Under the pieces are notes generated by a model. The model was not told the DNA's origin and made no database searches. It was given only the letters and a program-made list of their open reading frames with translations. The position numbers and the translations under genes are program-made. Shown here one piece after another: positions 1,006 to 56,510 of a DNA stretch of 64,000 nt (the stretch's first letter is position 1; each line of letters begins with the position of its first letter). This DNA is from Candidatus Udaeobacter sp. (GTDB lineage Bacteria > Patescibacteriota > Patescibacteriia > Magasanikbacterales > GWA2-37-8). The stretch is from contig DATION010000005.1 in the NCBI GenBank assembly GCA_035473115.1, forward strand, positions 4,399-68,398, in the 5' to 3' direction.

Positions 1006-4000
1006 GTAAGCAATTCATCTTTTAACTCCTCGCAATCTTTAACCAAAAACGAGGTTTTAATTATTTTATCTTCAACTTTTAAAACCACCGGCTTATCCCC
1101 GGGATATTTTTTTAAAACACTTTTTATAGCATCAGCTTTATTTTTTAACTGCTCAGCGCTAACTATTATTTCAAAAGATTCATTTGCATCAAAAGAAACT
1201 TTTGATTCATCTGCTTCTTTTTTAGCATTATTTTGCGCGCCTACAGACATCTGCTTTGCCAAAATCGGAGCGTTTTCCGGCGTAAGCAAATAAGCTTTTT
1301 CTACAAACAACTTATCATCGCCTTCTTCTTCGGAAGTGCGGCCAATCACACAAACCGGTTTGCCTTCCACCCAAACATCAGCAGTAGTTTCATAAGTTTT
1401 CGGAAAGATTAACAACTCCAGATTGCTGGTAGTATCTAAAATTTTGGCAAACATCATGGCTTTGCCGCCGCGAGTGATTTTTTTCTTGGTTGAATCAATC
1501 ATACCCCCAACCACCACCCATTGATTTCTGGACTGACTGGACAAATCTTTAAGCGGAGTCAAAACATCCTTCATTATCTTTTGATAAATTGTAAACGGAT
1601 GCGAAGTAACATACAGACCAAGCAGTTCTTTTTCCCATAAGAGCTTTTCATCTTCACTAGCATTGGGCGCTGAGGCTAATTGAATTTTGGCAGACATATC
1701 TATATTGGTGCCGGCAAATAAAGAATTTTGATTGGCAGGACTTTTTTCATGAATCTGTTTAATAAAAGCCAAAATATTTTCTATATTCCCGGCCAAATAA
1801 CCGCGATCATAACCAAAACAATCCAATGCGCCGCATTTTATCAAACTTTCCAAAGATTTTTTATTCAAATCTCTATCCTGTACTCGGGTAAGCAAATCTT
1901 GCAAATTTTTATATTTACCATTGGCTTTGCGTTCACGATAAATAGCTTCGGCAATATGTTCACCCAGGTTTTTAATGCCATTTAAACCAAAACGGATATG
2001 CGGTTGCGATCCATCTTCGGGAGAAATCATCGCAAAATTCTTAAAGCTTTCGTTGATGTCCGGCGGCAAAACTTTTACTCCCATTCTTTCCGCTTCATAG
2101 ATAACTTCCGGTACTTTATCAATATCACCGCTTTCGGCAATCAAAATAGCGGTCATATATTGCACTGGAAAATTGGCTTTTAGATAAGCGGTCTGATAAG
2201 CCACCACCGCATAACTGGCCGCATGAGCTTTGTTAAAACCATAAGCGGCAAATGGTTCGATGCGCTGCCAAAGATTATTAATCTTCTCCGGCGGCAACTT
2301 GCCAATTTCTTTGGCGCCTTTATAAAACTTTTCTTTCTGCTTAGCCATTTCTTCGGGAATCTTCTTACCCATCGCTTTGCGGAATTTATCGGCTTCTTCC
2401 CAGTTATAACCGGCCAAATTTATCGCTGTAAGCAACACATCGTCTTGATAAACAATTAATCCCAAAGACTGATCCAGATAATCTTTCATTCTCGGATCTT
2501 CGTATTCTATCAACTGCGGATTATTTTTTCTTTGAATATAATCGGGGATAGAATCCATTGGGCCGGGGCGAAACAAAGCCACCATCGCCATGATATCAAA
2601 AATTGAAGTGGGTTTAAGTTCTTTTAAATATCTGGTCATGCCGGAACTGGCCAGCTGAAACACACCAACAGTTTCACCGCGCGCCAACATTTCATAAGTT
2701 TTTTTATCATCCCATGGATACAAATTGTGCACATCAATTTTTTTACCGGTTGTTTTGGCAATAATTTCTACGGCGTGACCTAAAATTGATAAATTGCGAA
2801 TACCCAAAAAATCCATCTTCAAAACTCCGGCTGCTTCCACCGAATGCATTTCGTATTGAGTAATTATTCTTTCACCGCCCGTTTCCAGCTGCACGGGAGT
2901 AAAATCAGTCAAAGGAGTCGGCGAAATAACTACCCCGGCCGCGTGAATAGAAGTATGCCGAGCACAGCCTTCTACTTTTTGCGCCAAGTCCAGCAAACGT
3001 TTGACATCGGCATTTTTTTCATATAACTTTTTTAATTCCGGTTCCAGGTTCAAAGCTTTAGCAATAGTCATCTGAAAACCTTGGGCGCCAAAAGGAATAA
3101 GTTTGGAGACTTGATCACAAAAAGAGTATGGAAAACCCAAAGCTCGCCCCACATCTCGCACTGCTCCGCGCGCGGCCATCGTACCAAAAGTAATAATTTG
3201 CGCCACTTTATCGGCCCCGTATTTTTTAGTTACATAAGCAATCATTTCGTCACGCTTATCATCGGCAAAATCACCATCCACATCCGGCGGGCTAGGACGA
3301 AACGGATTTAAAAATCTTTCAAAAGGAAGTTTAAAAAACAAAGGGTTAACTGTCACAATACCCATAGCATACGAAACTATAGATCCTGCCGCAGATCCTC
3401 TGGTTGTAACCATAATATTGTTATTGCGAGCATAACCAATATAATCAGCTACGGTTAAAAAATACGGCGAGTAGCCTTTGGTCGCGATAATATCCAATTC
3501 ATAATCGACGCGCTTTCTCACTTCATCCGTTATTTCTAGTAATTTTGGCAATTTTTCATATACTTGTTCGCGCAAATACTCATTAGCTGTTTTCCCTTCC
3601 GGAATTTCTATGGCCGGAAAGTGCCACTTGTTTAATTCTAAAACCAAATTGGCACGCTCAGCTATTTTTACGGTATTAGTAATTGCTTCCGGCGTATGTT
3701 TAAAACGATTAATAATATCTTTTGCCGGAGCCAAAGAACAATCAAAGCCGCTCATACTCATACGATTTTCTTCATCCAGCGTCCGGCCGTCTCTGATACA
3801 AGTCAAAATATCTTGCGCTTCGGCATCTTCCGGTTCTAAGTAATGTGAATCGCGAGTAACAATTAACGGAATGCCGGTGTCTTTAGATAGTTGAGCAAGT
3901 TTTGTATTCAATTCCATCTGTCCTTCCAGACCGGGCAGATCCATCATTTCCAAATAAAAATTTCCTTTACCAAAAATTTCTTCGTATTCTAAAGCAACTT

Positions 4001-4481
4001 TTTTAGCTTTGGCATAATTATCTTCTTTGCGTAAAATCCAAGGAATTTCTCCGCTAAAACAGGCCGAAGAAGCAACTAAGCCTTCATGGTATTGTTTTAA
4101 TAATTCTTTATCAATTCTTGGTTTATAATAAAAACCTTCCAAGTTAGACAGAGAAGAAAGTTTCATTAAATTTTTGTAGCCCGTATAATCTAAAGCTAAT
4201 AAAATAAGATGATAATATTTATCGTCTTTATCTTTATCAAAACGGCTACCCGGAGCCAAGTAGGCTTCCATGCCGATAATTGGTTTTATTCCCTCTTTTT
4301 GGCAGCACTCATAAAATTCAATGGCGCCATACATATTGCCATGATCGGTCAGCGCCAAAGCTTTATAACCTAAACTTTTGGCTTTAGACACCAAATCAGG
4401 AATTTTGGATAATCCGTCTAAAAGAGAATAATGGGAGTGAACGTGAAGATGGACAAAATCAGACATACTATTGGTTGTCAT
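990..4481 (-). CDS. dnaE: DNA polymerase III alpha subunit DnaE
   Basis: PHP-domain N-terminus with FVHLHVHSHYSLLDG and full-length polIII alpha homology. The reported ORF has a 29-aa N-terminal extension running through repeat copy 2. The most likely start is ATG 4479-4481 (MTTNSMSDFVH), alternatively 4466 (MSDFVHLHVHS). Confidence 0.9.
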   Translation of the reverse strand: MTTNSMSDFVHLHVHSHYSLLDGLSKIPDLVSKAKSLGYKALALTDHGNMYGAIEFYECCQKEGIKPIIGMEAYLAPGSRFDKDKDDKYYHLILLALDYTGYKNLMKLSSLSNLEGFYYKPRIDKELLKQYHEGLVASSACFSGEIPWILRKEDNYAKAKKVALEYEEIFGKGNFYLEMMDLPGLEGQMELNTKLAQLSKDTGIPLIVTRDSHYLEPEDAEAQDILTCIRDGRTLDEENRMSMSGFDCSLAPAKDIINRFKHTPEAITNTVKIAERANLVLELNKWHFPAIEIPEGKTANEYLREQVYEKLPKLLEITDEVRKRVDYELDIIATKGYSPYFLTVADYIGYARNNNIMVTTRGSAAGSIVSYAMGIVTVNPLFFKLPFERFLNPFRPSPPDVDGDFADDKRDEMIAYVTKKYGADKVAQIITFGTMAARGAVRDVGRALGFPYSFCDQVSKLIPFGAQGFQMTIAKALNLEPELKKLYEKNADVKRLLDLAQKVEGCARHTSIHAAGVVISPTPLTDFTPVQLETGGERIITQYEMHSVEAAGVLKMDFLGIRNLSILGHAVEIIAKTTGKKIDVHNLYPWDDKKTYEMLARGETVGVFQLASSGMTRYLKELKPTSIFDIMAMVALFRPGPMDSIPDYIQRKNNPQLIEYEDPRMKDYLDQSLGLIVYQDDVLLTAINLAGYNWEEADKFRKAMGKKIPEEMAKQKEKFYKGAKEIGKLPPEKINNLWQRIEPFAAYGFNKAHAASYAVVAYQTAYLKANFPVQYMTAILIAESGDIDKVPEVIYEAERMGVKVLPPDINESFKNFAMISPEDGSQPHIRFGLNGIKNLGEHIAEAIYRERKANGKYKNLQDLLTRVQDRDLNKKSLESLIKCGALDCFGYDRGYLAGNIENILAFIKQIHEKSPANQNSLFAGTNIDMSAKIQLASAPNASEDEKLLWEKELLGLYVTSHPFTIYQKIMKDVLTPLKDLSSQSRNQWVVVGGMIDSTKKKITRGGKAMMFAKILDTTSNLELLIFPKTYETTADVWVEGKPVCVIGRTSEEEGDDKLFVEKAYLLTPENAPILAKQMSVGAQNNAKKEADESKVSFDANESFEIIVSAEQLKNKADAIKSVLKKYPGDKPVVLKVEDKIIKTSFLVKDCEELKDELLTVIPS

Positions 4482-4588
4482 CCCGAGTGAACCCGCTCTT
4501 CGCGAAGGGCGGGTGACGAGGGATCTATACCGAATTATTAAATAATAATGTATAGATTCCTCACCCACTATGGGGATTCGGAATGACA
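4476..4588 (-). repeat. Palindromic repeat family 1, copy 2 (inverted relative to copy 1)
   Basis: Reverse complement matches copy 1, including the ACCCGC(C/T)CTTCGCGAAGAGCGGGT hairpin. It carries an extra AT-rich palindromic loop (ATTATTAAATAATAAT). The terminal ...TGTCAT supplies the dnaE ATG. Confidence 0.85.
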
Positions 4589-4680
4589 GTTTATAAGCTT
4601 ATTAACTCGCCTATCTTACCTTAAACTAAAAACAAAATCAACGAAAATTTGGCTTTCAAAAACCTACTCTATATAATCAA

Positions 4681-4718
4681 AAAACCCTCGAACCAATGCA
4701 AGCAAAGGTCCGAGGGCC
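4681..4718 (-). terminator. Rho-independent terminator downstream of the 4781-5275 gene
   Basis: On the minus strand: CCCTCG stem, 19-nt loop, CGAGGG, followed by a T6 run. Confidence 0.55.
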
Positions 4719-4780
4719 GAATCGCGTGTAGATATGACTCTACACCCGGGTCTGGTTGGACTACTGCTTAGTTAGAGCGG

Positions 4781-5275
4781 TTAGCCCGTTGCTTGAAATT
4801 TGAAGATCTGTTTACAGGCTGGAGACGGTGCGGAGGAAGGAGTTCCATCATTATTGAAGCCGTAAGCTTCTATAGTGAACTCAGCACCTTTTCCAAGTCT
4901 GCCCTGGATATGCCAGAACTCCAAGACCTTGTCGTTAATGCCACCGGGATACAGGATCCAACTTTCGAAGGTGGCGTCTTTGTGAACTAGGACTTTTGGG
5001 AAACTGAATACCCATTGAGGTAAGTCTGTTTTGGGATTGAATATCAGCAAGGCTATGTCGTTGATACGACTATCCACCTTTTCCCGATTTTCCTCGACCC
5101 GCAGCTGTCCACTTTGGACATAAACAGCTCCGTTATCTTCGATGAATCCGTCACAGACAGAGTAAGAGGAAACATCTCCTTTGGCTCCCGAAAGAATGGT
5201 CACTGACGAATCAGACTGACCATTGAGGCAAGCGCCAAAGAACAAACTGAGCAAAACAATCATACGCTGCCACAT
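4781..5275 (-). CDS. Hypothetical secreted protein (signal peptide), compositionally atypical
   Basis: N-terminal hydrophobic signal MWQRMIVLLSLFFGACLNG. Higher GC and G/C-ending codons than the surrounding genes. Strong SD (AAAGGAGGG) 6 nt before the ATG. Confidence 0.6.
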   Translation of the reverse strand: MWQRMIVLLSLFFGACLNGQSDSSVTILSGAKGDVSSYSVCDGFIEDNGAVYVQSGQLRVEENREKVDSRINDIALLIFNPKTDLPQWVFSFPKVLVHKDATFESWILYPGGINDKVLEFWHIQGRLGKGAEFTIEAYGFNNDGTPSSAPSPACKQIFKFQATG

Positions 5276-5402
5276 CGCGACCCTCCTTTAAATTTAACCT
5301 AACCCTTACCCAGACACCATGTCCAGTTAAAGGATTGATTATCCTAAAACAAAAACGATCACCTGTCAATGATCGAATTTGATTAATATAATTAATGATT
5401 TT

Positions 5403-5789
5403 TTATTTCTTCAAATGCTTGGCAGTGGTTCTCATTTTTTTGGCTGTTGCCTCGACTGCTTTATCGACAGCTTCTTTGGCCGCTGTATTCATTTTACCGG
5501 ATTCTTTGTTTATAAAAGCTTTAGCTTTTCTGCTTACCATATCTGTTACCATTCCTGCCATTCCGCCTCCGGCCATGTTTAATAAATTATGAATATTTTC
5601 TACTTTGCCGCGCACATAATTTATCGCTTCAGTCAAAATCTGCAAACGAGAGCGAAATTCTTCAGCGATTTCATTGGCATTTTTTAAAATTCTGGTAACG
5701 TAATAAAACATCCAGCACAAAAATACTGTAATCCACAAAACACAGAAGGCGATTACCAGATATAAGATATCTTTTGATGATTCAAACAT
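5403..5789 (-). CDS. Small membrane protein, DUF948-like (N-terminal TM helix plus coiled-coil)
   Basis: The ORF is trimmed to the ATG at 5789, which is preceded by a GGAGGGG SD. TM segment ILYLVIAFCVLWITVFLCWMFYYV, then a coiled-coil-like region. Confidence 0.55.
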   Translation of the reverse strand: MFESSKDILYLVIAFCVLWITVFLCWMFYYVTRILKNANEIAEEFRSRLQILTEAINYVRGKVENIHNLLNMAGGGMAGMVTDMVSRKAKAFINKESGKMNTAAKEAVDKAVEATAKKMRTTAKHLKK

Positions 5790-5853
5790 ATTCCCCTCCA
5801 AATTAAAAATTAAGCTGTGTATATTATAACACAAATTAATTTTTTCTACAAAG

Positions 5854-8367
5854 CTACCTTACTTCCGCGCCAAATTTTTCTCTCAAGATTTTAATTATTT
5901 CATTATGAACCTTATCAACTTCTTCGGTCACCAGAGTGCGTTCTCGATTTTGATACACGAAATGATAGGCCATGCTCTTGTAATTATCTCCCACACCTTT
6001 GCCTTCATAAACATCAAACAACTCTACCGACTGTAAAAGCGGATTGACTGCCGAAAGAGCGGCCATAATATCGCCATGGTTTATATTTTTCTTAACCGAA
6101 ATCGCCAAGTCTCTTTCTACGATTGGAAATTCCACCAGCGCGGAATATTTTTCCCCGGCTGCCGGCAAATCAACCACCATACTCAGATTTATTTTTACTA
6201 CTGCCACTCGTCCATCTAAACCAAAATTTTCTATTACTTGCGGATGCAGTTCATAAACAGAACCGACTATTTTTTCTCCCACTGCCAAACTAACTGAGCG
6301 AGTCGGATGGCGGCCAATACCGCCCGCATCTGATTTGGAAACTTCTAAACCAGGCAAAACTGTCTTGGCTAAAATATCTACCACTTCTCTGGCCTGCCAA
6401 AAAGGCGCATTATTTTTTTTCTCCAAACAGACGGCTGTTAGCCAAGTATCCTGGCCAGGCAACAAGCTGTCTTTGTTTGACTCAACTCGCAAACCTGGGT
6501 TTTCGCCGCGAAATACTTTGCCGATTTCAAATAGATTTAATCTGTCTCGTCCAGCTTGGTTATTCTCTAAATTTTCCAATAAATTTAATAATAAACAACG
6601 ACGCAAATATGGCTTTTCTTTTGATAACGGATTGTCCAGCTGCAAATATCTATCCGGGTTGTCGGTCATTTTTGCTATCTGCGCTCCGCTGACAAAAGAA
6701 TAATTATATACTTCGGTATAAGCCAAAGAATTAACCAAAATATTTTTGCATTGTCTTTCCAACTGTCTCAATTTATTTTCTTCAGGCGGATCAATAAAAA
6801 ACTCCGGCAGCTGCGGCGCAATTTTTTCATAGCCATAGATACGAACTACTTCTTCCACCAAATCTTCAGGAATAGAAATATCTTTGGTAGCTCGCCAGGT
6901 AGGAATCTTTACTTTAAATTCATCGCCGCTGGTTTTTATTTCAAAACCTAAATGTTCCAAAATTTTTATAATTTCTTTTTTAGCCAGCTTAACACCGATT
7001 TTTTTATGGAAGAAATCTAGACTAATAGCCAGCGGGCCTTGCTGTAAATTAAATTTAGCTTCATCAACAACTTTACTGACTACTTTGGCTTGCGGACAGC
7101 ATTCCACAATTAATTCCACAGCTCGCTCCAGAGCCAAAGCTGCCAAATTTGGATCTAAACTTTTTTCAAAGCGCGCTGAAGAATCGGTGCGCAAACCAAG
7201 CTTGGCCGAAGTTTTTCGGATAGAAGCGGCTTCAAAATTGGCTGATTCAAAAATAATTGTTTTAGTTCCATCGGTAATTCCGGAATCTAATCCGCCTTTT
7301 ATTCCGGCAATAGCTAAATTTTTATCTTTATCGCCAATCATTAACATTGAACTATCCAAATTTCTCTTTAGACCATCTAAGGTAACAAACTCTTCTCCAT
7401 CTTTTGCCTTGCGGACAACTATAGTAGAATTTGTAATTTTAGACGCATCAAAAGCATGCATCGGCTGACCCATATCAAGCATTATATAATTGGTAATATC
7501 CACAATATTATTTATCGATCTCTGCCCCACAGCTAGTAAAGCTTTCTGCAGCCACTGCGGAGATGGCTCTACACTTACCCCGGAAACTGCCACCGCCATA
7601 TAGCGCGGACATAATTTAGTGTCTTCAACTTCTACTTTTAAATTTATTTCTTTACTAGGCTTGATTTTGCCAGTTTTAAATTCTTTTAATTTTTTATTAA
7701 AAAGCACCGCCACCTCGCGGGCAATCCCATAATGTCCCCACAGATCCGGGCGATTACTTAAAGATTTATTATCTATTTCCAAAATTGAATCATCCAATCC
7801 CAAAGCTTCAGCCAGCGGACGGCCAACAAATTTATCTTTGTGGGAAGCCAGGTGCGGCGCGACAAAACCTTTGTTAGTACTGCCTAGTCCATGCGGCTGC
7901 TTGGCTTTGCCCACAATAAAAGATAGGTCTAAAATTTCTTTTTCATCCCGCAAAGGGAACATGCCTCCCAAACCGATTTCGGTAGAGGCGCAGATCATGC
8001 CCGCAGATTCTATTCCCCGAATAGCGGTCGGTTTTAATTCTATCAACTCGCCTTCGCCATGCCATTTTACTTTGGCGCCCACTTTGGCCAGAGCCACCAG
8101 CATTCCATCTTTTACATTGCTGCCGCCGCAAATAATCTGTAATTGCTCGTTACCAACATCGGCTTTGCATAATTTTAATTTATCGGCGTTGGGATGTTTT
8201 TCGCAGGTTATAATTTTACCCACGACAATATTTTCCAGGTTTTTGCCTTGAACTTCTATGCCTTCAACTTCTACGGTACTAGCCTTTAATTTTTCAGCCA
8301 CTTCCGCAGCCGAAATTGAATCAGGTAGATTAACGTATTTTTTTAGCCAATTGTAAGAAATTAACAT
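5854..8367 (-). CDS. pheT: Phenylalanine--tRNA ligase beta subunit
   Basis: 837 aa with full-length PheT architecture (tRNA-binding, B3/B4, B5, catalytic-like and FDX-ACB domains). Lies directly downstream of pheS. Confidence 0.93.
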   Translation of the reverse strand: MLISYNWLKKYVNLPDSISAAEVAEKLKASTVEVEGIEVQGKNLENIVVGKIITCEKHPNADKLKLCKADVGNEQLQIICGGSNVKDGMLVALAKVGAKVKWHGEGELIELKPTAIRGIESAGMICASTEIGLGGMFPLRDEKEILDLSFIVGKAKQPHGLGSTNKGFVAPHLASHKDKFVGRPLAEALGLDDSILEIDNKSLSNRPDLWGHYGIAREVAVLFNKKLKEFKTGKIKPSKEINLKVEVEDTKLCPRYMAVAVSGVSVEPSPQWLQKALLAVGQRSINNIVDITNYIMLDMGQPMHAFDASKITNSTIVVRKAKDGEEFVTLDGLKRNLDSSMLMIGDKDKNLAIAGIKGGLDSGITDGTKTIIFESANFEAASIRKTSAKLGLRTDSSARFEKSLDPNLAALALERAVELIVECCPQAKVVSKVVDEAKFNLQQGPLAISLDFFHKKIGVKLAKKEIIKILEHLGFEIKTSGDEFKVKIPTWRATKDISIPEDLVEEVVRIYGYEKIAPQLPEFFIDPPEENKLRQLERQCKNILVNSLAYTEVYNYSFVSGAQIAKMTDNPDRYLQLDNPLSKEKPYLRRCLLLNLLENLENNQAGRDRLNLFEIGKVFRGENPGLRVESNKDSLLPGQDTWLTAVCLEKKNNAPFWQAREVVDILAKTVLPGLEVSKSDAGGIGRHPTRSVSLAVGEKIVGSVYELHPQVIENFGLDGRVAVVKINLSMVVDLPAAGEKYSALVEFPIVERDLAISVKKNINHGDIMAALSAVNPLLQSVELFDVYEGKGVGDNYKSMAYHFVYQNRERTLVTEEVDKVHNEIIKILREKFGAEVR

Positions 8368-12679: not shown

Positions 12680-13093
12680 ATGAAAATAGGAATTATTGGT
12701 AGCATGCACTTTAGTGAAAAAATGCTAGAGATTGCTAAAAATCTTAAAACACTCAACCACGAGCCAATTCTTTCAAATTTTATTAATGATTTCCCCGGAC
12801 AGAATGATGAAGAAAAAGAACGAATAAAACTTGATCAAAAATTTAACGAGGATGCTATGCGGCGCGATTGGGAAACCATGAAATCAGCCGACGCGCTTCT
12901 GGTAATAAATATGGAACGTCATGGCATACCCAACTATATTGGAGGCAACACGCTTTTTGAGTTAGCAGCCGGGTATTTCACTGGGAAAAAAATTTTTCTC
13001 TATAATCCTGTCCCTGAAATTCAGTATTACAAATCTGAAATTGAAGCAACTAAACCAACTATAATAAATGGAGATTTATCAAAAATAATATAA
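12680..13093 (+). CDS. Nucleoside 2-deoxyribosyltransferase-like protein
   Basis: N-terminal KIGIIGSM Rossmann start and a C-terminal ELAAGYFTGKKIF motif matching the NDT-family E-x-G-x-A-x3-GKP signature. Confidence 0.5.
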   Translation: MKIGIIGSMHFSEKMLEIAKNLKTLNHEPILSNFINDFPGQNDEEKERIKLDQKFNEDAMRRDWETMKSADALLVINMERHGIPNYIGGNTLFELAAGYFTGKKIFLYNPVPEIQYYKSEIEATKPTIINGDLSKII

Positions 13094-13095
13094 TT

Positions 13096-13521
13096 ATGGA
13101 TCAAAACAACCAATACCCAAAAGTCGGGGTCGGAGTAATGATTTTTAAAGATGGTAAAGTTTTATTAGGCAAAAGAAAAAACGCCCATGGCGAAGGTGCT
13201 TATGCTTGGCCAGGCGGCCATATGGAATATATGGAATCTTTTGCAGATTGCGCCAAAAGAGAAACAATGGAAGAAACAGGTATGGAAATAGAAAATGTTA
13301 GATTTCTTAGATTATATAATCTAAAAGAATACGCCCCTAAACATTATGTTGATGTTGGGCTTATAGCCGATTGGAAAAGTGGCGAACCAAAAATAATGGA
13401 GCCAGAAAAATGTGAGGGCTGGGATTGGTATGACATGGATAATTTACCTCAGCCTTTATTCAGTACTATTCCAAGCTACATTGAAGCTTACAAAACTGGC
13501 AGAAATTTTTTTGATAATTAA
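13096..13521 (+). CDS. Nudix hydrolase (MutT-like)
   Basis: Nudix box GGHMEYMESFADCAKRETMEETG. Confidence 0.8.
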   Translation: MDQNNQYPKVGVGVMIFKDGKVLLGKRKNAHGEGAYAWPGGHMEYMESFADCAKRETMEETGMEIENVRFLRLYNLKEYAPKHYVDVGLIADWKSGEPKIMEPEKCEGWDWYDMDNLPQPLFSTIPSYIEAYKTGRNFFDN

Positions 13522-13522
13522 A

Positions 13523-13852
13523 TTAACGACTGCGTGTCTGCGGATTTGGTCCAAACAATTTATCAAATACTGAAAGTTTACGCACAGTGTTGCGTTCATT
13601 TTTTAAAAACACTTCGCCGGATTCTTTGCCAATTTTCTGCACAACATACTCAAAGGCGCGCATATCATCTTCTAACTTGGCTTTAATAATCATTTTTGGT
13701 TTTAATCCGGTCTGTTTTATACGGGCAGAAATTTGCTGGCGCTTATTAAAATCAACATCCTTTTGATCTTCCTGGTTTTGGCGGCCAATACTTTCTCTTT
13801 TAGATAACCAACGACCGGCTGGGCTAACTGGCGTGGAAGACATTTTGGACAT
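13523..13852 (-). CDS. Hypothetical basic protein (109 aa)
   Basis: ORF only, Lys/Arg-rich. The true start may be internal. Confidence 0.35.
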   Translation of the reverse strand: MSKMSSTPVSPAGRWLSKRESIGRQNQEDQKDVDFNKRQQISARIKQTGLKPKMIIKAKLEDDMRAFEYVVQKIGKESGEVFLKNERNTVRKLSVFDKLFGPNPQTRSR

Positions 13853-13869
13853 AAATTAAAATTAATTAT

Positions 13870-14763
13870 TTATAAAGCTTCAACTTCTTCAATAATATCT
13901 TCCTCATCAACTTCAACCTCTGGAGTTTCTTGATATGGACCGCGGCGCTCTGCTGGCAACATTGTACCAATGGCTGCGGCCACAGTATCGGCATCTTCTT
14001 TTAATCTTCTGGAAACTCTGGAAAATTCCTTGACCTCATCGGCTGTCACAACTTCTCCCTGTTTGCGCTTATTCATAACTGTAGCAATAATTGAAACATC
14101 TAAAGGCAGTAATTTGATAGGCTTACCTACATGATAAGTACCTTCGGCTTTTTTCCTACCAGCCACAGCTTTAGCTAATTCCCAAGGCCCTTCCAAATTA
14201 ACTGATCCGCCGTTATATTCCAAAGCTGCGGGAATAATCATAGCTCCGCTTTTGTGGGCTAAATAAATAGCGCCTATGCCTGCTTTACGCATTTCTTCCT
14301 CTTTAGTCCAAGGATGTACAGCTATCCAGGGAGTTTTTCCTTTTTCAATACCTTCTTCTAATCCGGCGAAATCTGCTGGATTAAAAACTCCATGCTTGTT
14401 GCCACCCTTGCCTTTCTCATACGATAAAGGAGTAAAATTTTCTTTTCCAGCCAATTTAAATAATAAATTTTGCGCGGCAGTTCGCTTAAAATGAACTGAC
14501 TCAGCCGTAACTTGAATGTCTAAAATATCCCCCAGCGCTTCCACTGTTGCGGGAGCATCCAGATTAGAAAAATGCGACGTGGCAATGACAAATTTAGCGT
14601 TCGGGTTTTCTTTCAATTCTTGTTTAACTTCTTCTTTTCCTTCCACCTGAAAATTACGACAGAAAAAATCCACTATTTTCTTTACTCTTTCTCGAAATTT
14701 AGTGGGAGTTTCTCTTTTTTGGGTTTTTTCAACTTCCATTCCACCTCTAAAACCTTCACGCAT
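13870..14763 (-). CDS. Putative PlsC-like lysophospholipid acyltransferase
   Basis: HFSNLD resembles the HxxxxD acyltransferase motif. The assignment is tentative. Confidence 0.4.
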   Translation of the reverse strand: MREGFRGGMEVEKTQKRETPTKFRERVKKIVDFFCRNFQVEGKEEVKQELKENPNAKFVIATSHFSNLDAPATVEALGDILDIQVTAESVHFKRTAAQNLLFKLAGKENFTPLSYEKGKGGNKHGVFNPADFAGLEEGIEKGKTPWIAVHPWTKEEEMRKAGIGAIYLAHKSGAMIIPAALEYNGGSVNLEGPWELAKAVAGRKKAEGTYHVGKPIKLLPLDVSIIATVMNKRKQGEVVTADEVKEFSRVSRRLKEDADTVAAAIGTMLPAERRGPYQETPEVEVDEEDIIEEVEAL

Positions 14764-14785
14764 AAAAATAAATTAATACTAAGGT

Positions 14786-14896
14786 CAAATCATTATTGAT
14801 TTTTGCAGCGGCCATCGCACCCTCAGATGGGTGCCTGCAGGGCATTTGCCTGTCCCCTTTAGGGGGGCTGCCAGAAAATTAATAATAATTAATTAT
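14786..14896. repeat. Palindromic repeat family 2, copy A (core TTTTTGCAGCGGCCATCGCACCCTCAGATGGGTGCCTGCAGGGCATTTGCC with AT-rich inverted flanks)
   Basis: The core recurs at 40598-40681 and inverted at 24652-24735. Nested stems GCACCC/GGGTGC and TGCAG/CTGCA. Lies between two minus-strand genes. Confidence 0.7.
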
Positions 14897-16257
14897 TATT
14901 GTATTATACCACTAATCTCTTTTACTTTCTCTTTCATAATTTCTTCGCTGACTGCTTCTAAATTCAAACGCATTTTATTTTCCGTATTGGAAGCGCGGAC
15001 ATTAAACCAAAAATCCGGCCACTGGAAACTCAGACCATCAAAATCATATTGCAAATTAGCGCCGTATTTATCTTTTAATTTTTTAAAGACTGCTTCTTTG
15101 TCGGTAACGGCAAAATTGATTTCTCCGGACTGATGATATTTTTGCAGCGGCGTAACATATTCACTAAATTCTTTTCCGCTTCCCGACAACTCCTGCAAAA
15201 TCTTCAAGGTCATAATTTCCGGAACTTCAAATGTTCCGTGCGGCATCTTTAAAAAGAAATGCCCCGAAGATTCACCGGCAAAAACTGCTTCCACTTCGCG
15301 CATTTTTTCTTTTATCAAAGAATGACCTACTCTGGTTACCACCGGCACACCCCCTGCTTCCTCAATCATATCTATAGTAATTTTCCCTGGACGGATATCG
15401 TAACCCACTTTAGCGCCTGGATTATCGCGCAAAAAAATCTTGGCCAAAATACCGCGCAAAATTGCCGGCTCAATTGTCTTGCCTTTATTATCTACAAAAA
15501 ATATTCTGTCCGCATCGCCATCTAGAGCAATTCCCAAATCTGCGCCAGTCTCCAAAACTTTTTGCTGCAAAGCATGATTGTTTTCGTCTTTTAGCGGATC
15601 AGCTTCGTGATTAGGAAATCGGCCGTCGAGCTCAAAATACATTTTTATTAATTCACAAGGCAAATATTTAAACAATTCTGCCATTAGCGGCCCGCCCATG
15701 CCATTGGCGGTGTCTACCACAATTTTAAACGGTTTTATTTTCTGCAAATCAGCATAACCCAAAGCATACTTTATTTGCTCGGCCAAAACTCCTTCTAGTT
15801 TGGAAACATTTCCTTTTTTGACAACTTCGGGAAATTCATTAGCCTCTACCATATCTCTGACTTCCATAATACCGGTATCGCCGCTAATGGGCACGGCCGC
15901 AGCGCGGGTCATTTTAAAACCATTATACTGCGCTGGATTATGCGAAGCGGAAACTTGCAAACCAGCATCATAGCCATAATAGCTGACGCCGAAATAAAAA
16001 GTTGGGGTGGAAGCCAAACCAATATCTACCACATTTACTCCCTGGTCGGTGATGCCTTTGACTACAGATTCAAAAAGAGATGGCGAGGAAGCGCGCATGT
16101 CCTGGCCAACCGCTACAGTAATACTGTCTTTAGCGACTTCTTTTTTTATAAGTTCGGCAAAAGCCCGACCAACACGGTAAGCAATTTCTTCGTTTAATTC
16201 ACTAGGATAAACTCCTCGAATGTCATAGGCTTTAAAGATGTTTTTGGCGATTTGCAT
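14896..16257 (-). CDS. Phosphoglucomutase/phosphomannomutase family protein
   Basis: Active-site SASHNPAQYNGFK and an N-terminal KAYDIRG motif. Confidence 0.85.
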   Translation of the reverse strand: MQIAKNIFKAYDIRGVYPSELNEEIAYRVGRAFAELIKKEVAKDSITVAVGQDMRASSPSLFESVVKGITDQGVNVVDIGLASTPTFYFGVSYYGYDAGLQVSASHNPAQYNGFKMTRAAAVPISGDTGIMEVRDMVEANEFPEVVKKGNVSKLEGVLAEQIKYALGYADLQKIKPFKIVVDTANGMGGPLMAELFKYLPCELIKMYFELDGRFPNHEADPLKDENNHALQQKVLETGADLGIALDGDADRIFFVDNKGKTIEPAILRGILAKIFLRDNPGAKVGYDIRPGKITIDMIEEAGGVPVVTRVGHSLIKEKMREVEAVFAGESSGHFFLKMPHGTFEVPEIMTLKILQELSGSGKEFSEYVTPLQKYHQSGEINFAVTDKEAVFKKLKDKYGANLQYDFDGLSFQWPDFWFNVRASNTENKMRLNLEAVSEEIMKEKVKEISGIIQ

Positions 16258-16335
16258 AAAAAAATTATAATTGACTTTTTAGCTTAAATTAGTATATAAT
16301 AAGCAACATAATGAGTCAAAATTTAAACTAAAAAC

Positions 16336-18867
16336 ATGAACATCATTGACCGATTTTCCACTCACCTGCGTGAAGTTCTGGTTGGCAGCGTGCGCATTGC
16401 CACAGACCTAAAAAATCCTTCGGTAGAACCGATTCATCTTTTGCTGGCTTTATCTATGCAGAAAGGATCTGTGGCCAATGAAATTTTAAACCGATATAAA
16501 CTGGATACAAAAAATATCGAAAAAATTATTGCTGAATTAAAACCTGAAATTAATTTAACAACAAAAATTGACCCTTCGCCATTTTCGGCAAACTCCAAAT
16601 CTGCTTTAGAAAAAGCTTTGGTCATCGCCCAAAAAAATAGCCACAACTACTTGGGCACCGAACATCTACTCTCCGCTCTGCTTAACCTTAACGATTCATC
16701 AATAGAAGAGCTGCTTACCGGAAATAAAGTTAAAAAAACCGAACTAAACGAACAGCTGGAAATTGTACTAGCCACCGCTTCCCAATTTCCGCAAATTACT
16801 GAAATACCAGAAGTAATTAGTCATATGCAAGAAGGCTTATCCGACGACGCTATGCTGCAACAAATTTTGCCCACAGACAAAAAAAATAAGAAAAAAGAAT
16901 CAGCCCTAAATTTTTTTGCGGCCAATTTAACTAATCCTGATATTCAAGCTGACATTGATCCGGTAATTGGCCGGGAAACAGAGATCGAACGCATGATGCA
17001 GATTTTGTGCCGCCGCACCAAAAACAACCCGATTCTTTTGGGAGAACCGGGCGTGGGCAAAACAGCTATTGTTGAAGGTCTGGCCAAAAAAATCGCTGCC
17101 GGCGAAGTGCCAGACGCGCTGCTCAACAAAAAAATATACGCTCTAGATATGGGTATGCTTATTGCCGGCACAGCTTACCGCGGTGAATTCGAAGGCCGCT
17201 TGCGCCAAGTAATTGAAGATGTCAGCAGTGACCCAAATATAATTTTGTTTATTGACGAGCTGCACAACATTGTCGGCGCTGGCTCCAACCAAGGCACCAT
17301 GGACGCAGCCAACATTCTAAAGCCAGCTTTGGCGCGCGGCGAAATTCGCTGCATCGGCGCCACCACTCCGGCCGAATTTAAAAAACATATTGAAAGCGAC
17401 GCCGCTCTCGAAAGACGCTTCCAGCCGATTTATGTCAAAGAGCCATCGGTGGCCGACACGATTAAAATTCTTAGCGGCATAAAAAGTAACTACGAAATTT
17501 TTCATAACTTAAAAATTACTGACCAAGCTATAGCCAAAACTGTGCAACTGGCTGATCGTTATATCACCAACAAACTTTTGCCAGACAAAGCCATTGATCT
17601 TTTGGATGAAACTGCGGCAGCTAAACGTTTAAAAACCAAACCGACTCTGGCCGAAGCCAAATTATGGCGCCTGAAGCAAGAATTAGAAAAAACAATTTCT
17701 GCCAAAGAAGTTGCCGCTGGCAATGATAAATTTAACGAAGCAGTAAGACTAAAAGAAAAAGAAAAAATTCTGGAGCAGGAAATAAAATATTACAAAGAAA
17801 AAACTGCTCTGCAAAAAACTGCCAAAACAGAAACGGTTATTACTGAAGAAGATATAATTAACCAATTGGCAAAAATAATCGACACGCCGATTCGTGATTT
17901 ATTTATTAAAAAACAAGGCCGCGCTTCAATGGACGCTGCGCGACATGATTCCGCTGAATCAAATAATTTAATCAACTTTGAATCCGAACTGCAAAAACGC
18001 ATTATTGGCCAAGATGAAGTTTTGCATGAAGTCGCCCAAATTATCCAGCAAGCGCAGTTGGAACTTTCCAGCCCAAATCGCCCACTGGCTTCGTTTTTGT
18101 TTGTCGGCGAAAGCGGCGTGGGCAAAACCGAACTGGCAAAGTCTTTGGCGCAAACACTGTATCCAAACCAAAATTCTTTTATCCAGCTCAACATGAGTGA
18201 GTTTAACGAAAGTTTTAGTGTTTCTAAACTGCTTGGCTCCCCAGCCGGATATATTGGCTACAAAGAAAGCAACCAATTTACTGACCGGATTAAAATGAAT
18301 CCCTACTGCGTGGTTTTGCTAGATGAAATCGACAAAGCCCATAAAGATGTAACTAAACTTCTTTTGCAGATGTTGGAAAATGGCGAAATCACCGACTCAG
18401 TCGGCAAAAAAATATCCCTCAAGCACGCTGTGATTATCCTGACCACTTCACTGGGCGGAGAAGAAATGAAAAAAAATAATATCGGCTTTGAAAACAATAA
18501 CAATAATTCCGAAAACAAAAAACGGATCAAAGAAAAACTAAAAGAATTTTTCTCTCCCGAGCTTATAAACCGGTTGGATCAAATCTGTATTTTCAACAAT
18601 CTTACCAAAGCTGACCTGGCCAAAATTGCCGCTTTGGAAATTATTGATTTGAATAAACAGCTAGAGCAATACCACACCGCTATTAAAGCCGAAGACAAAA
18701 TCTTTGACTGGTTTGTCGGCCAGCTGACCGAAAAAAATAACGCCCGCGAAGTCCGCCGCCAAATCAGAAATCAGGTAGAAAAAATGATGGCTGAAATTAT
18801 CATGCAAGATAAAATAAAAACTCAACACAAGTTGGTTTTGCAGCAAAATAAATTGTCAGTAAAATAA
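16336..18867 (+). CDS. clpC: Clp-family AAA+ chaperone ATPase (ClpC-like)
   Basis: Clp N-domain repeats, two Walker A boxes (GEPGVGKT, GESGVGKT), a short coiled-coil middle domain, 843 aa. Confidence 0.85.
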   Translation: MNIIDRFSTHLREVLVGSVRIATDLKNPSVEPIHLLLALSMQKGSVANEILNRYKLDTKNIEKIIAELKPEINLTTKIDPSPFSANSKSALEKALVIAQKNSHNYLGTEHLLSALLNLNDSSIEELLTGNKVKKTELNEQLEIVLATASQFPQITEIPEVISHMQEGLSDDAMLQQILPTDKKNKKKESALNFFAANLTNPDIQADIDPVIGRETEIERMMQILCRRTKNNPILLGEPGVGKTAIVEGLAKKIAAGEVPDALLNKKIYALDMGMLIAGTAYRGEFEGRLRQVIEDVSSDPNIILFIDELHNIVGAGSNQGTMDAANILKPALARGEIRCIGATTPAEFKKHIESDAALERRFQPIYVKEPSVADTIKILSGIKSNYEIFHNLKITDQAIAKTVQLADRYITNKLLPDKAIDLLDETAAAKRLKTKPTLAEAKLWRLKQELEKTISAKEVAAGNDKFNEAVRLKEKEKILEQEIKYYKEKTALQKTAKTETVITEEDIINQLAKIIDTPIRDLFIKKQGRASMDAARHDSAESNNLINFESELQKRIIGQDEVLHEVAQIIQQAQLELSSPNRPLASFLFVGESGVGKTELAKSLAQTLYPNQNSFIQLNMSEFNESFSVSKLLGSPAGYIGYKESNQFTDRIKMNPYCVVLLDEIDKAHKDVTKLLLQMLENGEITDSVGKKISLKHAVIILTTSLGGEEMKKNNIGFENNNNNSENKKRIKEKLKEFFSPELINRLDQICIFNNLTKADLAKIAALEIIDLNKQLEQYHTAIKAEDKIFDWFVGQLTEKNNAREVRRQIRNQVEKMMAEIIMQDKIKTQHKLVLQQNKLSVK

Positions 18868-24644: not shown

Positions 24645-24651
24645 ACGATTT

Positions 24652-24735
24652 AATAGGTGCTAATTTTTTTGTTTCCAAATGCCCTGCGGGCACCCTCCCG
24701 AGGGCGCGATGGAAACTGCTAAAATTGGCACCTAT
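24652..24735. repeat. Palindromic repeat family 2, copy C (inverted orientation) flanked by the 9-bp IR AATAGGTGC/GCACCTATT
   Basis: Its core CCAAATGCCCTGCGGGCACCCTCCCGAGGGCGCGATGG is the reverse complement of the copy A/B cores. The element is 84 nt, the same size as copy B. Confidence 0.65.
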
Positions 24736-24747
24736 TAAATTTAAAAA

Positions 24748-24821
24748 CTAAAATAAATAATAATTTTGCAGTGGCCATGCGATTATGCTCATTGGACACA
24801 AAAAATTATTATTTATTTTAG
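24748..24821 (-). terminator. Long hairpin (perfect 20-bp AT-rich IR with a 34-nt loop holding a partial family-2 core), likely the recG terminator
   Basis: CTAAAATAAATAATAATTTT pairs with AAAATTATTATTTATTTTAG. On the minus strand the hairpin is followed by a T-rich run. It sits immediately 3' of recG. Confidence 0.5.
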
Positions 24822-24838
24822 TTTTGATTTCCAGACCC

Positions 24839-26920: not shown

Positions 26921-27156
26921 AATAATGCGGTTATTATAGCATAAAATAGACAATATAATAGCTATGTTAAGGCAAATTTGATACATTGACAAAACTCATA
27001 ATTTGTGTTACTATTATTTGTTGCTCTTTTTATCCGCATAAACTTCCTAGCGCTGTATTCATTATAAAATAGTAAATATAGCAATAGGGAGTTTTGCTAC
27101 AAAAAACAGCTTGAAGCAACAACTCTAAAGATGAGTTGTCAAATAAGGAGAGCGCT

Positions 27157-27507
27157 ATGTCTGGACAATCACTTGAAGAAACACTTCTTGCTCGCCTTGC
27201 GAAAATCAGGAGAACTGATTGCGAGCATATTCCTGGCTTCTTCACCGTAGTCCTGATTGTTAGGCACTACTTTGAAGAATACTCCGGTATTCGAGAAGGT
27301 GTACAAATGAGCCAAAGCTCATTACCGGAGCACCTCATAGCTGCACTCAAAATGGTTCAGAGCCAGAATATTGATGATGGCCGCATTAATACCTTACGGT
27401 ACCTGTACACTACGGAAGTAAGCTGGGGACATTTACCAGATATACAAACTCTAATAGAGAGGATAGCCCAAGACCCTGAAATAATCTTCAGAAGAAAGAC
27501 TACCTGA
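27157..27507 (+). CDS. Hypothetical protein, compositionally atypical
   Basis: Strong SD (AAGGAG) 6 nt before the ATG at 27157. GC and codon usage differ from the neighbours. No recognisable domain. Confidence 0.45.
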   Translation: MSGQSLEETLLARLAKIRRTDCEHIPGFFTVVLIVRHYFEEYSGIREGVQMSQSSLPEHLIAALKMVQSQNIDDGRINTLRYLYTTEVSWGHLPDIQTLIERIAQDPEIIFRRKTT

Positions 27508-27616
27508 CCGCCAACAGCATAAACGATCTGTGACAGGACCTTATCAAAGGCCGTCCCAACTCGTTATGATTATCAACTTGGTAATTATAACGAGGACGGT
27601 CTTCAAAAAAATATTA

Positions 27617-27652
27617 AAGAACACCCATAAAATTTTATGGGTGTTCTTTTTT
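27617..27652. terminator. Bidirectional rho-independent terminator (16-bp perfect palindrome AAGAACACCCATAAAA/TTTTATGGGTGTTCTT with flanking A/T runs) between convergent genes
   Basis: Seen directly in the sequence. Confidence 0.7.
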
Positions 27653-27670
27653 AACTCAACGAAATTCAAA

Positions 27671-40579: not shown

Positions 40580-40597
40580 AAAAAATTAGCTAGTTTA

Positions 40598-40681
40598 ACC
40601 AATACTGATTTTTGCAGTGGCCATCGCACCCTCAGGAGAGTGCCCGCAGGGCATTTGGCTACAAGAAAATTAGTATTGGTT
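40598..40681. repeat. Palindromic repeat family 2, copy B, flanked by the 10-bp IR AACCAATACT/AGTATTGGTT
   Basis: Core TTTTTGCAGTGGCCATCGCACCCTCAGGAGAGTGCCCGCAGGGCATTTGGC. Lies between two minus-strand genes. Confidence 0.7.
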
Positions 40682-40689
40682 AAATATAT

Positions 40690-41999: not shown

Positions 42000-42072
42000 G
42001 CGCCTGTAACTCATCGGTTAGAGTGCCACCCTTATAAGGTGGAAGCAGATGGTTCGATTCCATCCAGGCGCA
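42000..42072 (+). tRNA. tRNA with anticodon UAU (tRNA-Ile, AUA-decoding)
   Basis: Hand-folded cloverleaf: acceptor GCGCCTG/CAGGCGC, D arm ACTC/GAGT, anticodon stem CCACC/GGTGG with loop CTTATAA (U33, UAU, A37), T arm GATGG-TTCGATT-CCATC, discriminator A. No encoded CCA. Confidence 0.75.
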
Positions 42073-42097
42073 CAAAACTTGTATTTTCTCTAAAAAA

Positions 42098-54509: not shown

Positions 54510-54523
54510 AAATATACTAAATA

Positions 54524-54556
54524 AAAAATCCTCTTTAAATCAGAGGATTTTTTATT
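54524..54556 (+). terminator. rnj rho-independent terminator (AATCCTCT...AGAGGATT plus a T-run)
   Basis: Seen in the sequence. Confidence 0.65.
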
Positions 54557-54576: not shown

Positions 54577-55019
54577 GTCCTTTTCTTTTAAAAGAAAAGG
54601 ACCTAAAGAAACTGCGAGCGGCGGAATTACTCAGAGCCAGACAGGACTCGTTCTCGCTGCTCTCGTGAACTCGCTCGACCGTTTCCAACGGTCGGCTCAA
54701 ACAGCACGAGAGCTCTTTTAAAGACCGCTCCAACTCATCTCTGTCTGCTAACTTCATAATTCCAATGCTCGCCCGAACCGTCCATTGTCCGTTGTCCGTC
54801 GTTCGATCCGAGCATATGGACTTTGGCCGAACTGGCCACGGTGATGGTGAACGGTCCCTTTCGCTTGACGAAAGGGATTTGTCCTGCTGTTTGAGACCAC
54901 CTGTTATAGACAGGTGGTTGAGTTCAGGACAAAAGAGAGACAGAACAGTTGGCAGTTCGAGACAAAGGACATCCGCTCGGCGAGTTTTTCTTACGCTTTT
55001 TGCTCGGTCAAAAAGCGTA
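54577..55019. ncRNA. Candidate large structured noncoding RNA of unknown class (GC-rich block of consecutive strong hairpins); strand undetermined
   Basis: Local GC is clearly above the surrounding AT-rich sequence (by eye). Perfect stems include GTCCTTTTCTTTT/AAAAGAAAAGGAC, GCTCTCGTG...CACGAGAGC enclosing CGACCG/CGGTCG, GCTCG-CGAAC...GTTCG-CGAGC, CCCTTTCG/CGAAAGGG, GTCCTG[ACCACCTGT/ACAGGTGGT]CAGGAC and TACGCTTTTTG/CAAAAAGCGTA. No credible ORF on either strand. Confidence 0.45.
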
Positions 55020-55033
55020 GAGGGGTTGGTGTT

Positions 55034-55062
55034 TTGCGTATAAACCATAAAAAAGCTATAAT
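55034..55062 (+). promoter_or_regulatory. Sigma70-type promoter (TTGCGT, 17-nt spacer, TATAAT) for the dehydrogenase gene
   Basis: Seen in the sequence. Confidence 0.55.
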
Positions 55063-56105: not shown

Positions 56106-56137
56106 AAACACTCCGCAATTACGGAGTGTTTTTTTAT
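56106..56137. terminator. Bidirectional terminator (A7-ACACTCCG-CAATTA-CGGAGTGT-T7) shared by the dehydrogenase gene and the minus-strand rnpB
   Basis: Seen in the sequence. Confidence 0.7.
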
Positions 56138-56510
56138 AGCATAAGCCGAATTTTGTTCCCAATTTTAATCGGGAGATGATCATTTCTCTGGGTTTGGCGT
56201 TGCCACCAACCTCAAGCGAGCGAACTTTTTACCACGCCCTTCGCGAAGGACGTGGCTCTGCTCTTGCGTTCAAGTAAGGATTTAGACGTTTCACCTTTCG
56301 ACTTATTACCTCCATCGAAAGTTAAGCAATATTTTTGATTTCCCAAAAATTTGAGGTTTGCTTTCTCTTTCTTTTCAAAAAGAGACGTTTCTGTTCGCAC
56401 CTCGAGCCTTGCGGCCGACGGGGGTTACCCGCTACCTTTCTCCTTAGTTTTCACCAAGGGAACGTTCGGACTTTCCTCCCTACCAAGTGACAGGGCGATC
56501 ATCGCTATAC
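56136..56510 (-). ncRNA. rnpB: RNase P RNA
   Basis: The minus-strand reading contains GGGAGGAAAGUCCGAAC (P4/CR-I, compare E. coli GGAGGAAAGUCCGGGC), GGAGAAAGGUAGCGGGUAACC (compare GGUGAAAGGGUGCGGUAAGAGC), and a 3'-terminal ACAAAAUUCGGCUUAUGCUAU (compare ACAGAACCCGGCUUAUCGG). P1 pairing AUAGC/GCUAU. ~375 nt, GC-rich. Confidence 0.7.

Follow-up and report, generated by a model that had tools for sequence, protein, structure and literature searches.

What occupies the GC-rich, hairpin-dense intergenic stretch between the RNase J gene (rnj) and a 2-hydroxyacid dehydrogenase gene in a Candidatus Udaeobacter sp. genome placed in the Magasanikbacterales, and does it act as RNA or as DNA? The stretch in question, positions 54577-55019 of a 64-kb piece of contig DATION010000005.1 that was analysed as a whole and is hereafter called the window, had been proposed in an initial annotation to be one large structured RNA or else a stacked cluster of palindromes. 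We can conclude that it is a composite palindromic noncoding element consisting of two anciently duplicated and inverted modules, here named A and B, and not one large RNA. It is best read as a new lineage-specific structured element that probably acts as RNA, with a hairpin-ended mobile or recombining DNA as a serious rival. The contigs and relatives with which the window was compared are labelled L003 and L121-L153.

Architecture of the element

The block is an inverted duplication of a single unit of ~200 nt, a feature that was recognised because long-range inverted repeats link the two halves and that the initial annotation had missed. Module A (54577-54773, + strand) aligns over its full length with the reverse complement of module B (55019-54808, - strand), the cores of the two being ~60% identical, and the motif GAACTC-N-CTCAAACAG has exactly two occurrences in the 64 kb, one per strand, against an expectation of 0. 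From its outer end each module is laid out as a perfect terminal hairpin (P0), an A-rich linker, which separates P0 from the rod in all 11 of the 11 aligned units, and a rod of ~165 nt. Along the rod the helices P1, P2 and P3 are followed by a central bubble, by P4 (9 bp), by an internal loop (AACUC.. / ..CUCAAACA) and finally by the apical helix P5, and the bubble comprises 13-18 nt on one side and a side hairpin, P6, together with 16-20 nt on the other.

In module A, P0 (54577-54602, + strand) is a perfect 13-bp palindrome, GTCCTTTTCTTTT/AAAAGAAAAGGAC, from which homologous P0s differ in a fully compensated manner, and the linker (54603-54613, + strand; CTAAAGAAACT) is accordingly U-rich when read on the opposite strand. 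The predicted fold of the module A rod (54614-54773, + strand) has the central bubble and the internal loop GAACTC / CTCAAACAG between helices P1 (54614-20/54766-72), P2 (54623-29/54757-63), P3 (54639-44/54741-46), P4 (54659-67/54705-13) and P5 (54676-83/54687-94), with the side hairpin P6 at 54714-17/54721-24. A model built from B units only, R1, detects this rod with 64.3 bits (E 1.7e-12). The rod of module B (54808-54980, - strand) is the conserved copy, whose homologs score 147-190 bits with R1, and its predicted fold comprises P1 (54974-80/54808-14), P2 (54963-72/54816-25), P3 (54951-59/54829-37), P4 (54925-33/54878-86), P5 (54910-18/54896-54904) and P6 (54868-77/54853-62). Its linker (54981-54991) reads AAGAAAAACTCG on the - strand and forms, on the + strand, a U5 tract 4 nt past the P1 stem, and its P0 (54992-55019, - strand; TACGCTTTTTG-6 nt-CAAAAAGCGTA) is the outer edge of the element. 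Indeed, where near-identical B units are found in unrelated contexts, the similarity ends at the outer foot of P0. The two modules are separated by a spacer of 34 nt (54774-54807, assigned to neither strand), which is made up of GTCCRTY tandem heptamers (GTCCATT GTCCGTT GTCCGTC GTTCGAT), and a 14-nt core of this spacer, GGACAACGGACAAT, is conserved in L129, L132 and L138, where it lies on the opposite strand compared with the window.

The boundaries are as the initial annotation described them. On the left, the stop of rnj at 54509 is followed by the intrinsic and bidirectional rnj terminator (54523-54553; AAAAAATCCTCT-loop-AGAGGATTTTTT), seen both in the sequence and in a terminator scan of the - strand, and on the right the promoter of the 2-hydroxyacid dehydrogenase gene, TTGCGT-17-TATAAT (55034-55062, + strand), precedes the beginning of that gene at 55081. 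Both lie outside the element, and the promoter is native to the locus, the same one being kept in element-free relatives, in which an equivalent rnj terminator directly abuts the next promoter.

Composition, folding and coding capacity were likewise in agreement with that annotation. The GC content reaches 0.505-0.53 over 54600-54999 (in 200-nt windows) against 0.29-0.44 in the flanks and 0.397 in the entire window, but GC alone is not diagnostic, since many coding stretches here also reach a GC content of at least 0.50. The stems listed in the annotation are all real as judged by an inverted-repeat search, which includes perfect inverted repeats of 13, 11 and 9 bp within the block, and the folds of the 461-nt block beat those of shuffled sequences on both strands (+ strand, -180 kcal/mol, z -6.58; - strand, -188 kcal/mol, z -7.95; in either case 0 of 100 shuffles were as good). 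The 209-aa and 92-aa open reading frames (ORFs) of the block, which had been judged implausible, are not conserved among homologs; these differ through indels of 1, 2, 11 and 44 nt that shift all frames, and a conserved ORF is therefore excluded and the block noncoding. A small toxin peptide, considered by eye, was also rejected, since the ATG is conserved but neither frame nor length is.

Selection on fold and sequence

The homologs with covariation that the initial annotation had called for were found. A strict sequence pattern applied to a metagenome collection returned 12 contigs, 8 of which (L129, L130, L131, L132, L136, L137, L138 and L139) hold true homologs. Seven B and two A units, nine in all, were aligned with a model, and covariation was counted over the 41 pairs of the five helices P1-P5, treated as four blocks with P1 and P2 merged. 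In this alignment 95.6% of the cells are paired, as compared with 28-38% after sliding the partner by 1-3 columns, and two-sided compensatory changes are found at 27 of the 41 pairs, with 0 of 500 shuffles reaching any of these measures. All seven helices, P0 and P6 included, show several fully compensated variants when tabulated helix by helix, so for example P4, which occurs as UUUGUCCUG/CAGGACAAA, GCUCUCGUG/CACGAGAGC, AAUUUCCAU/AUGGAAAUU and AAUUUUCAA/UUGAAAAUU, and P0, for which there are at least 5 compensated variants. The fold of the modules is thus under selection.

The two modules differ in how this constraint is expressed. Across B units the unpaired sequence of the bubble and loops does not vary and the cores are 76-99% identical to each other, and between the window and L129 the B core is 85.7% identical, as against 78.9% for the rnj DNA and only 59.5% for the A core. 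Module B is consequently under strong constraint on its unpaired sequence as well as on its structure. Module A is constrained mostly in structure, its sequence diverges fast, and it can be lost: the window copy retains 63 Watson-Crick pairs, but elsewhere the module is partly decayed, P5 being absent in L129 and P1 mismatched in both L129 and L138. The A-type units group as a clade of their own across loci, and the pairing of A with B is therefore ancient.

Distribution of the element

Pairs of A and B in the same inverted arrangement are found in the window, in L129, where the pair lies between rnj and Ldh, and in L132 and L138, where it follows ftsW. In L130, L131, L139 and L148 (upstream of mnmA) module B stands alone with recognisable remnants of A: what is left of A in these solo-B loci is a complete or half P0 joined to the spacer. 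The sequences of L136 and L137 stop in the spacer. At least two lineages have lost module A by deletion. L148 was the sole additional copy recovered by a synteny search through relatives of RNase J, Ldh and MnmA, all other sites being empty. After rnj, the window and L129, whose RNase J proteins are 83.9% identical, both carry the element; upstream of mnmA, L130, L131 and L148 have B, which the 68%-identity relatives L149-152 lack.

With filters off, R1 found no third unit in the 64-kb window, nor did it find any unit in ~200 kb of related loci, and the element is therefore not a dispersed repeat. No match to it was obtained in phage, plasmid and viral collections. A 15-base gapped pattern run against a genome collection was rejected as too loose, since essentially all of its ~120 loci were due to chance; BLAST of the A and B units matched none of them, and R1 gave no hit in the lone Patescibacteria locus among them, L003. 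As far as these sequence searches reach, the family is found only in a few contigs of Magasanikbacteria, members of the Candidate Phyla Radiation (CPR), and the window itself is assigned to Candidatus Magasanikbacteria by its RNase J homologs.

Two side observations concern the neighbourhoods of the element. In L148 an island of ~6 kb of hypothetical ORFs (1982-8114), including a fragment of an AbiEii-like toxin ORF, lies between a zinc-ribbon gene and module B with mnmA; L149 lacks the island and L130 has a shorter one, and the region is therefore variable. The gene following rnj is either an L-lactate dehydrogenase or a D-2-hydroxyacid dehydrogenase gene, with very similar promoters (window, L122, L123, L126, L129, L145 and L153), an alternation that looks like a small recombination hot spot.

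Relation to known RNA families

The possibility raised in the initial annotation of a single RNA of ~440 nt similar to OLE, GOLLD or ROOL did not hold up. The block does resemble OLE, GOLLD, ROOL and raiA in being a GC-rich and highly structured intergenic region of an AT-rich genome, but it is composed of two inverted modules of ~200 nt, one of which, B, persists alone in some genomes, and membership in OLE, GOLLD, ROOL, HEARO or raiA is rejected by the covariance models of Rfam 15, which give no match. Indeed the Rfam check that had been suggested at the time returned no family match that would reclassify the block, even at E <= 10 within 54610-54985, and none in four homologous contigs at E <= 5, and this includes the 6S models, which gave no match at the same thresholds. 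The absence of tmRNA, signal recognition particle (SRP) RNA and RNase P RNA from the block was in turn confirmed by ARAGORN and Rfam: at the gathering threshold the Rfam scan of the window yields only RNase P RNA (56132-56508, - strand) and two tRNAs, and ARAGORN finds two tRNAs and no tmRNA in the window. It should be mentioned that the RNase P RNA of the window scores 105.6 bits against a gathering score of 100 and that its ortholog in L126, at 94.2, falls below gathering, so that the Rfam models appear only marginally sensitive in this lineage. A literature search found nothing on noncoding RNAs specific to CPR organisms or on the present motif.

Several further identities were considered and rejected. 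Kink-turns, T-loops, tRNA-like features and CsrA-type GGA sites in the spacer were ideas taken up by eye and dropped, as were attC, dif and parS sites and the template or variable repeats of diversity-generating retroelements. A bridge RNA was rejected since the loops do not convincingly match the flanks and since there is no recombinase nearby.

Strand and expression signals

If the modules are transcribed, the purine-rich strand, that is B on the window + strand and A on the window - strand, would tentatively be the more likely sense strand. Its unpaired bases are relatively rich in G (0.24-0.34) and poor in C (0.07-0.17), the unpaired bases of the RNase P RNA sense strand are likewise purine-rich and C-poor (A 0.51, G 0.20, C 0.15), and the opposite strand of the units resembles the RNase P antisense in unpaired composition. 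Furthermore, the purine-rich strand folds better by 2.6-17.6 kcal/mol in 8 of 9 units, the 1x1 mismatches within helices that are U.C or C.U on the pyrimidine-rich strand become G.A or A.G on the purine-rich one, and the lone recent one-sided change, in P5 of L138, results in a G.U on the purine-rich strand. Wobble cells in the shared helices, 3 as against 4 between the strands, carry no strand signal.

As to signals at the edges, -10-like TTTATAA boxes occur 8-20 nt outside P0, and on the outward-reading strand a tract of 4-5 U is found 2-4 nt past each rod, the stem of which closes over ~165 nt. In L132 and L138 the element comes straight after ftsW, no other terminator lying between this gene and module A, and transcription from the flank therefore probably crosses the element there. 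A spacing in the spacer resembling an extracytoplasmic function (ECF) sigma factor promoter, GAAC-N17/18-CGTC/CGAC, was noticed by eye and rejected, for it fits the window and L132 but fails at the other loci.

Possible functions

We tentatively favour the reading that the modules function as structured RNAs of 6S-like architecture, B being the working copy, a reading that we consider possible and somewhat short of even. Having no canonical promoter themselves, the modules would be transcribed from the flanks, transcription would stop at the far module, whose rod has a U tract after it, and the invariant single-stranded bubble and loop sequences of B would form the working surface, binding either protein or nucleic acid. 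The shape of the rod recalls that of 6S RNA: it has the dimensions of the 6S type, a rod of 150-200 nt with a central bubble between closing and apical stem, and the helices that flank the bubble, P3 and P4, covary. A more specific version, which we consider unlikely, is that B represents a new Magasanikbacteria-specific class of structured RNA of ~170 nt, either 6S-like and protein-sequestering or a guide or scaffold whose protein is encoded elsewhere, which would travel in inverted arrangement with a fast-evolving paralog and would relocate between terminator-promoter gaps by a not-yet-described hairpin-dependent mechanism.

A number of observations weigh against an action as RNA. A consensus scan found no canonical promoter or terminator for either module on either strand, the sole terminator found being that of rnj, even though in the same genome rnpB has the promoter TTGACA-17-TAATAT and a clean terminator and tRNA-Ile has TTGAAA-17-TATACT. 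The pairing is nearly purely Watson-Crick, one-sided changes being found at 4 pairs compared with 27 for two-sided changes, and no G.U occurs among the 1x1 mismatches within helices, which is as expected for a constraint at the level of DNA or on both strands. The strand opposite to the presumed sense strand is moreover favoured by a conserved G.U/G.A 2x2 loop beside P1 and by one U.G to G-C covariation, and the spacer is inverted between genomes. Finally, the orthologous site after rnj is without the element in L122, L123-125, L126/127, L140, L141/142, L143/144, L145/146 and L153, and the RNase J of L153 is 93.7% identical to that of L129.

The serious rival, which we regard as somewhat unlikely, is that of a non-autonomous, hairpin-ended mobile or recombining DNA element of the kind of miniature inverted-repeat transposable elements (MITEs), bacterial interspersed mosaic elements (BIMEs) or PATEs, the single-stranded DNA folds of which would be recognised by a recombinase encoded elsewhere in the genome, with A and the partial P0s as older, decaying ends. 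The element is indeed polymorphic in presence and absence, with clean empty sites among close relatives as for a MITE, the right junction is invariably P0 + A-rich + TTTTG(C), and B units 98.9% (L136 and L139) or 95% (L130 and L138) identical are found in unrelated contexts. In L138, furthermore, its own P0 is followed in tandem by pieces of 25 and 20 nt that match exactly the P0 types found in L130 and L132 and that are each cut at the T run. The nearly pure Watson-Crick pairing and the lack of promoters also fit such an element, as does the presence of another dispersed palindromic repeat family in the same window. L129 is flanked by a direct repeat of 12-15 bp, TTTTG(T/C)TT(T)ATAAA(A)C, which is single-copy at the empty sites of L122 and L145, but this repeat is AT-rich and nearly palindromic and can also be read as an inverted repeat or a deletion substrate, and it is weaker in the window and L132. 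Four contigs (L121, L131, L136 and L137) end within the element, and these breaks suggest either population heterogeneity or an assembly problem at palindromes; L121, a Logan contig and independent assembly of the window sequence, starts at ~54994 and so breaks inside the P0 of module B, and the other three break in the spacer or at P1. Against mobility stands that conservation is lowest at the termini and that the interior loops are invariant, the reverse of what holds for an inverted-repeat element recognised by a transposase, and that P0 differs between the two ends in 3 of 4 pairs (window, L129 and L138) and is identical only in L132, unlike the terminal repeats of a MITE. The copy number is low, as seen above with R1, the A-type clade makes A and B ancient partners and not a fresh insertion beside an old one, no transposase, integrase or reverse transcriptase was found by Pfam among 40 scanned ORFs of the window, and the mobile-DNA collections lack the element. 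With the MITE-like palindromes ERIC/IRU, Correia/CREE and RUP, which can end up in transcripts, the element shares being noncoding, rod-folding, intergenic and polymorphic in presence, but it differs from them in its termini, which are not conserved between ends or copies, its better conserved interior, its low copy number and its uncertain target-site duplication. The stacked palindromes similar to repetitive extragenic palindromic (REP) sequences that the initial annotation had also considered are right insofar as the element is an intergenic inverted pair of palindromic units that follows genes, has a short linker and varies in its stem sequences with compensation, as do enterobacterial REP/BIME elements, but its units are ~200 nt long and have seven helices as opposed to ~35 nt for REP, thus about six times the length, it is present at one locus in 64 kb as opposed to hundreds per genome, its loops are conserved, and no RAYT-type Y1 transposase was found by Pfam among the 40 window ORFs. 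To the guide RNAs, namely the bridge RNA of IS110/IS621 and the omega RNA of TnpB/IscB (HEARO), it would be akin as a structured RNA of ~150-250 nt that borders an inserted segment and combines a terminal hairpin and a rod that has two large internal loops; it is unlike them in that no gene for a recombinase or nuclease adjoins it (the neighbours being rnj, dehydrogenase, ftsW and mnmA genes) or occurs in the window, that Rfam gives no match to HEARO/IS605-type RNAs, and that, as noted, its loops do not convincingly match the flanks.

The remaining explanations are less probable still. That transcription from either side crosses one module and stops at the other, at a rod followed by a U tract, so that the element would be a cis-acting bidirectional transcription barrier, or a REP/BIME-like stabiliser of RNA 3' ends with the terminated RNA carrying a very stable 3' structure, appears rather improbable to us. 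The symmetric design, the position of the element, always between a gene end and the next -35 box, the outward U tracts close to each rod and the fact that it is the sole terminator-like structure past ftsW in L132 and L138 would be in line with such a role, but terminators need no 165-nt rods with seven covarying helices and invariant loops, rnj already has a strong terminator of its own in the window and L129, and relatives manage without the element. A diverged pair of genuine 6S RNAs, the rods of which would mimic an open promoter and sequester RNA polymerase and in which the pyrimidine-rich 5' strand of the bubble would template the product RNA (pRNA), is improbable. 6S RNA (ssrS; RF00013) is an abundant discrete transcript that binds the RNA polymerase holoenzyme and templates pRNA, and two paralogs can coexist in one genome; the two modules could thus correspond to such paralogs, like 6S-1 and 6S-2 of Bacillus, Rfam found no 6S RNA elsewhere in the window, and the rod is similar in shape (~165-175 nt, ~170 nt being typical of 6S RNA, with a closing stem, a large two-sided central bubble that bears a hairpin on one of its strands, and an apical stem that is interrupted). 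The element nevertheless differs from 6S RNA in lacking a match to the Rfam models of 6S and related RNAs (E <= 10) and a promoter or terminator of its own, in having the additional hairpin P0, in its adjacent and inverted copies and in its patchy distribution among close relatives, which would be odd for a 6S RNA. A site acting as double-stranded DNA or as a cruciform upstream of the downstream promoter, for example by binding a protein or sensing supercoiling, we consider very improbable. The P0 of B does end 9-14 nt before the -35 hexamer in 7 of 10 loci (window, L129, L130, L131, L132, L137 and L148), in which the junction TTTTG(C) is the start of the -35 box, the orientation of B with respect to the downstream gene is constant wherever that gene is known, and the pairing restricted to Watson-Crick pairs and the direct heptamer repeats of the spacer, the strand of which is not conserved, would suit a DNA site. 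The downstream genes are however unrelated (two types of dehydrogenase, mnmA and a membrane protein among others), in relatives the same promoters function without it, and the binding of double-stranded DNA does not need local hairpin complementarity.

Other features of the window and related loci

The other palindromic family of the window consists of rod-like intergenic elements of ~95 nt, unrelated to A and B, at 40593-40685 (+ strand), 24648-24741 (- strand) and, as a partial copy, 14788-14851. Between copies the core is ~86% identical (..GCAGTGGCCATCGCACCCTCAGGAGAGTGCCCGCAGGGCATTTGG..), and the 20-bp outer stem is wholly different yet fully compensated. The fold has a z of -5 to -10 on both strands, Rfam gives no match, and the family was not found in L121-L153. 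Beside the copy at 24648-24741, between convergent genes, lies an 80-nt AT-rich and near-perfect palindrome with a 23-bp stem (24745-24824), the inner part of which has TTTTGCAGTGGCCATGCG in common with the ~95-nt family. At 26993-27670 a gap of 679 nt separates a recG-like ORF from that of a type II/IV secretion ATPase when ORFs of 130 aa or more are considered. Of the two tRNAs, the one at 42000-42073 is assigned by ARAGORN as tRNA-Ile with anticodon TAT (UAU), an uncommon bacterial way of reading AUA. In the close relative L126, an IS110-family gene (Transposase_20; 14810-16294, - strand) is found within 13044-17538 beside rnpB (13044-13418); its noncoding flanks exceed 1 kb, the region has no similarity to A or B, and R1 detects no unit there.

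Implications

The genomes of CPR bacteria, or Patescibacteria, are tiny and contain very little noncoding DNA, and in such a setting module B is more conserved than the neighbouring essential gene. The design of the element, an inverted pair of paralogs with the sequence constrained in one copy but only the structure in the other, is unusual, and owing to this arrangement the loops of the two modules would be complementary on any single transcript. The element thus represents a novel regulatory RNA in these organisms or else a selfish element of a new type that depends on structure.

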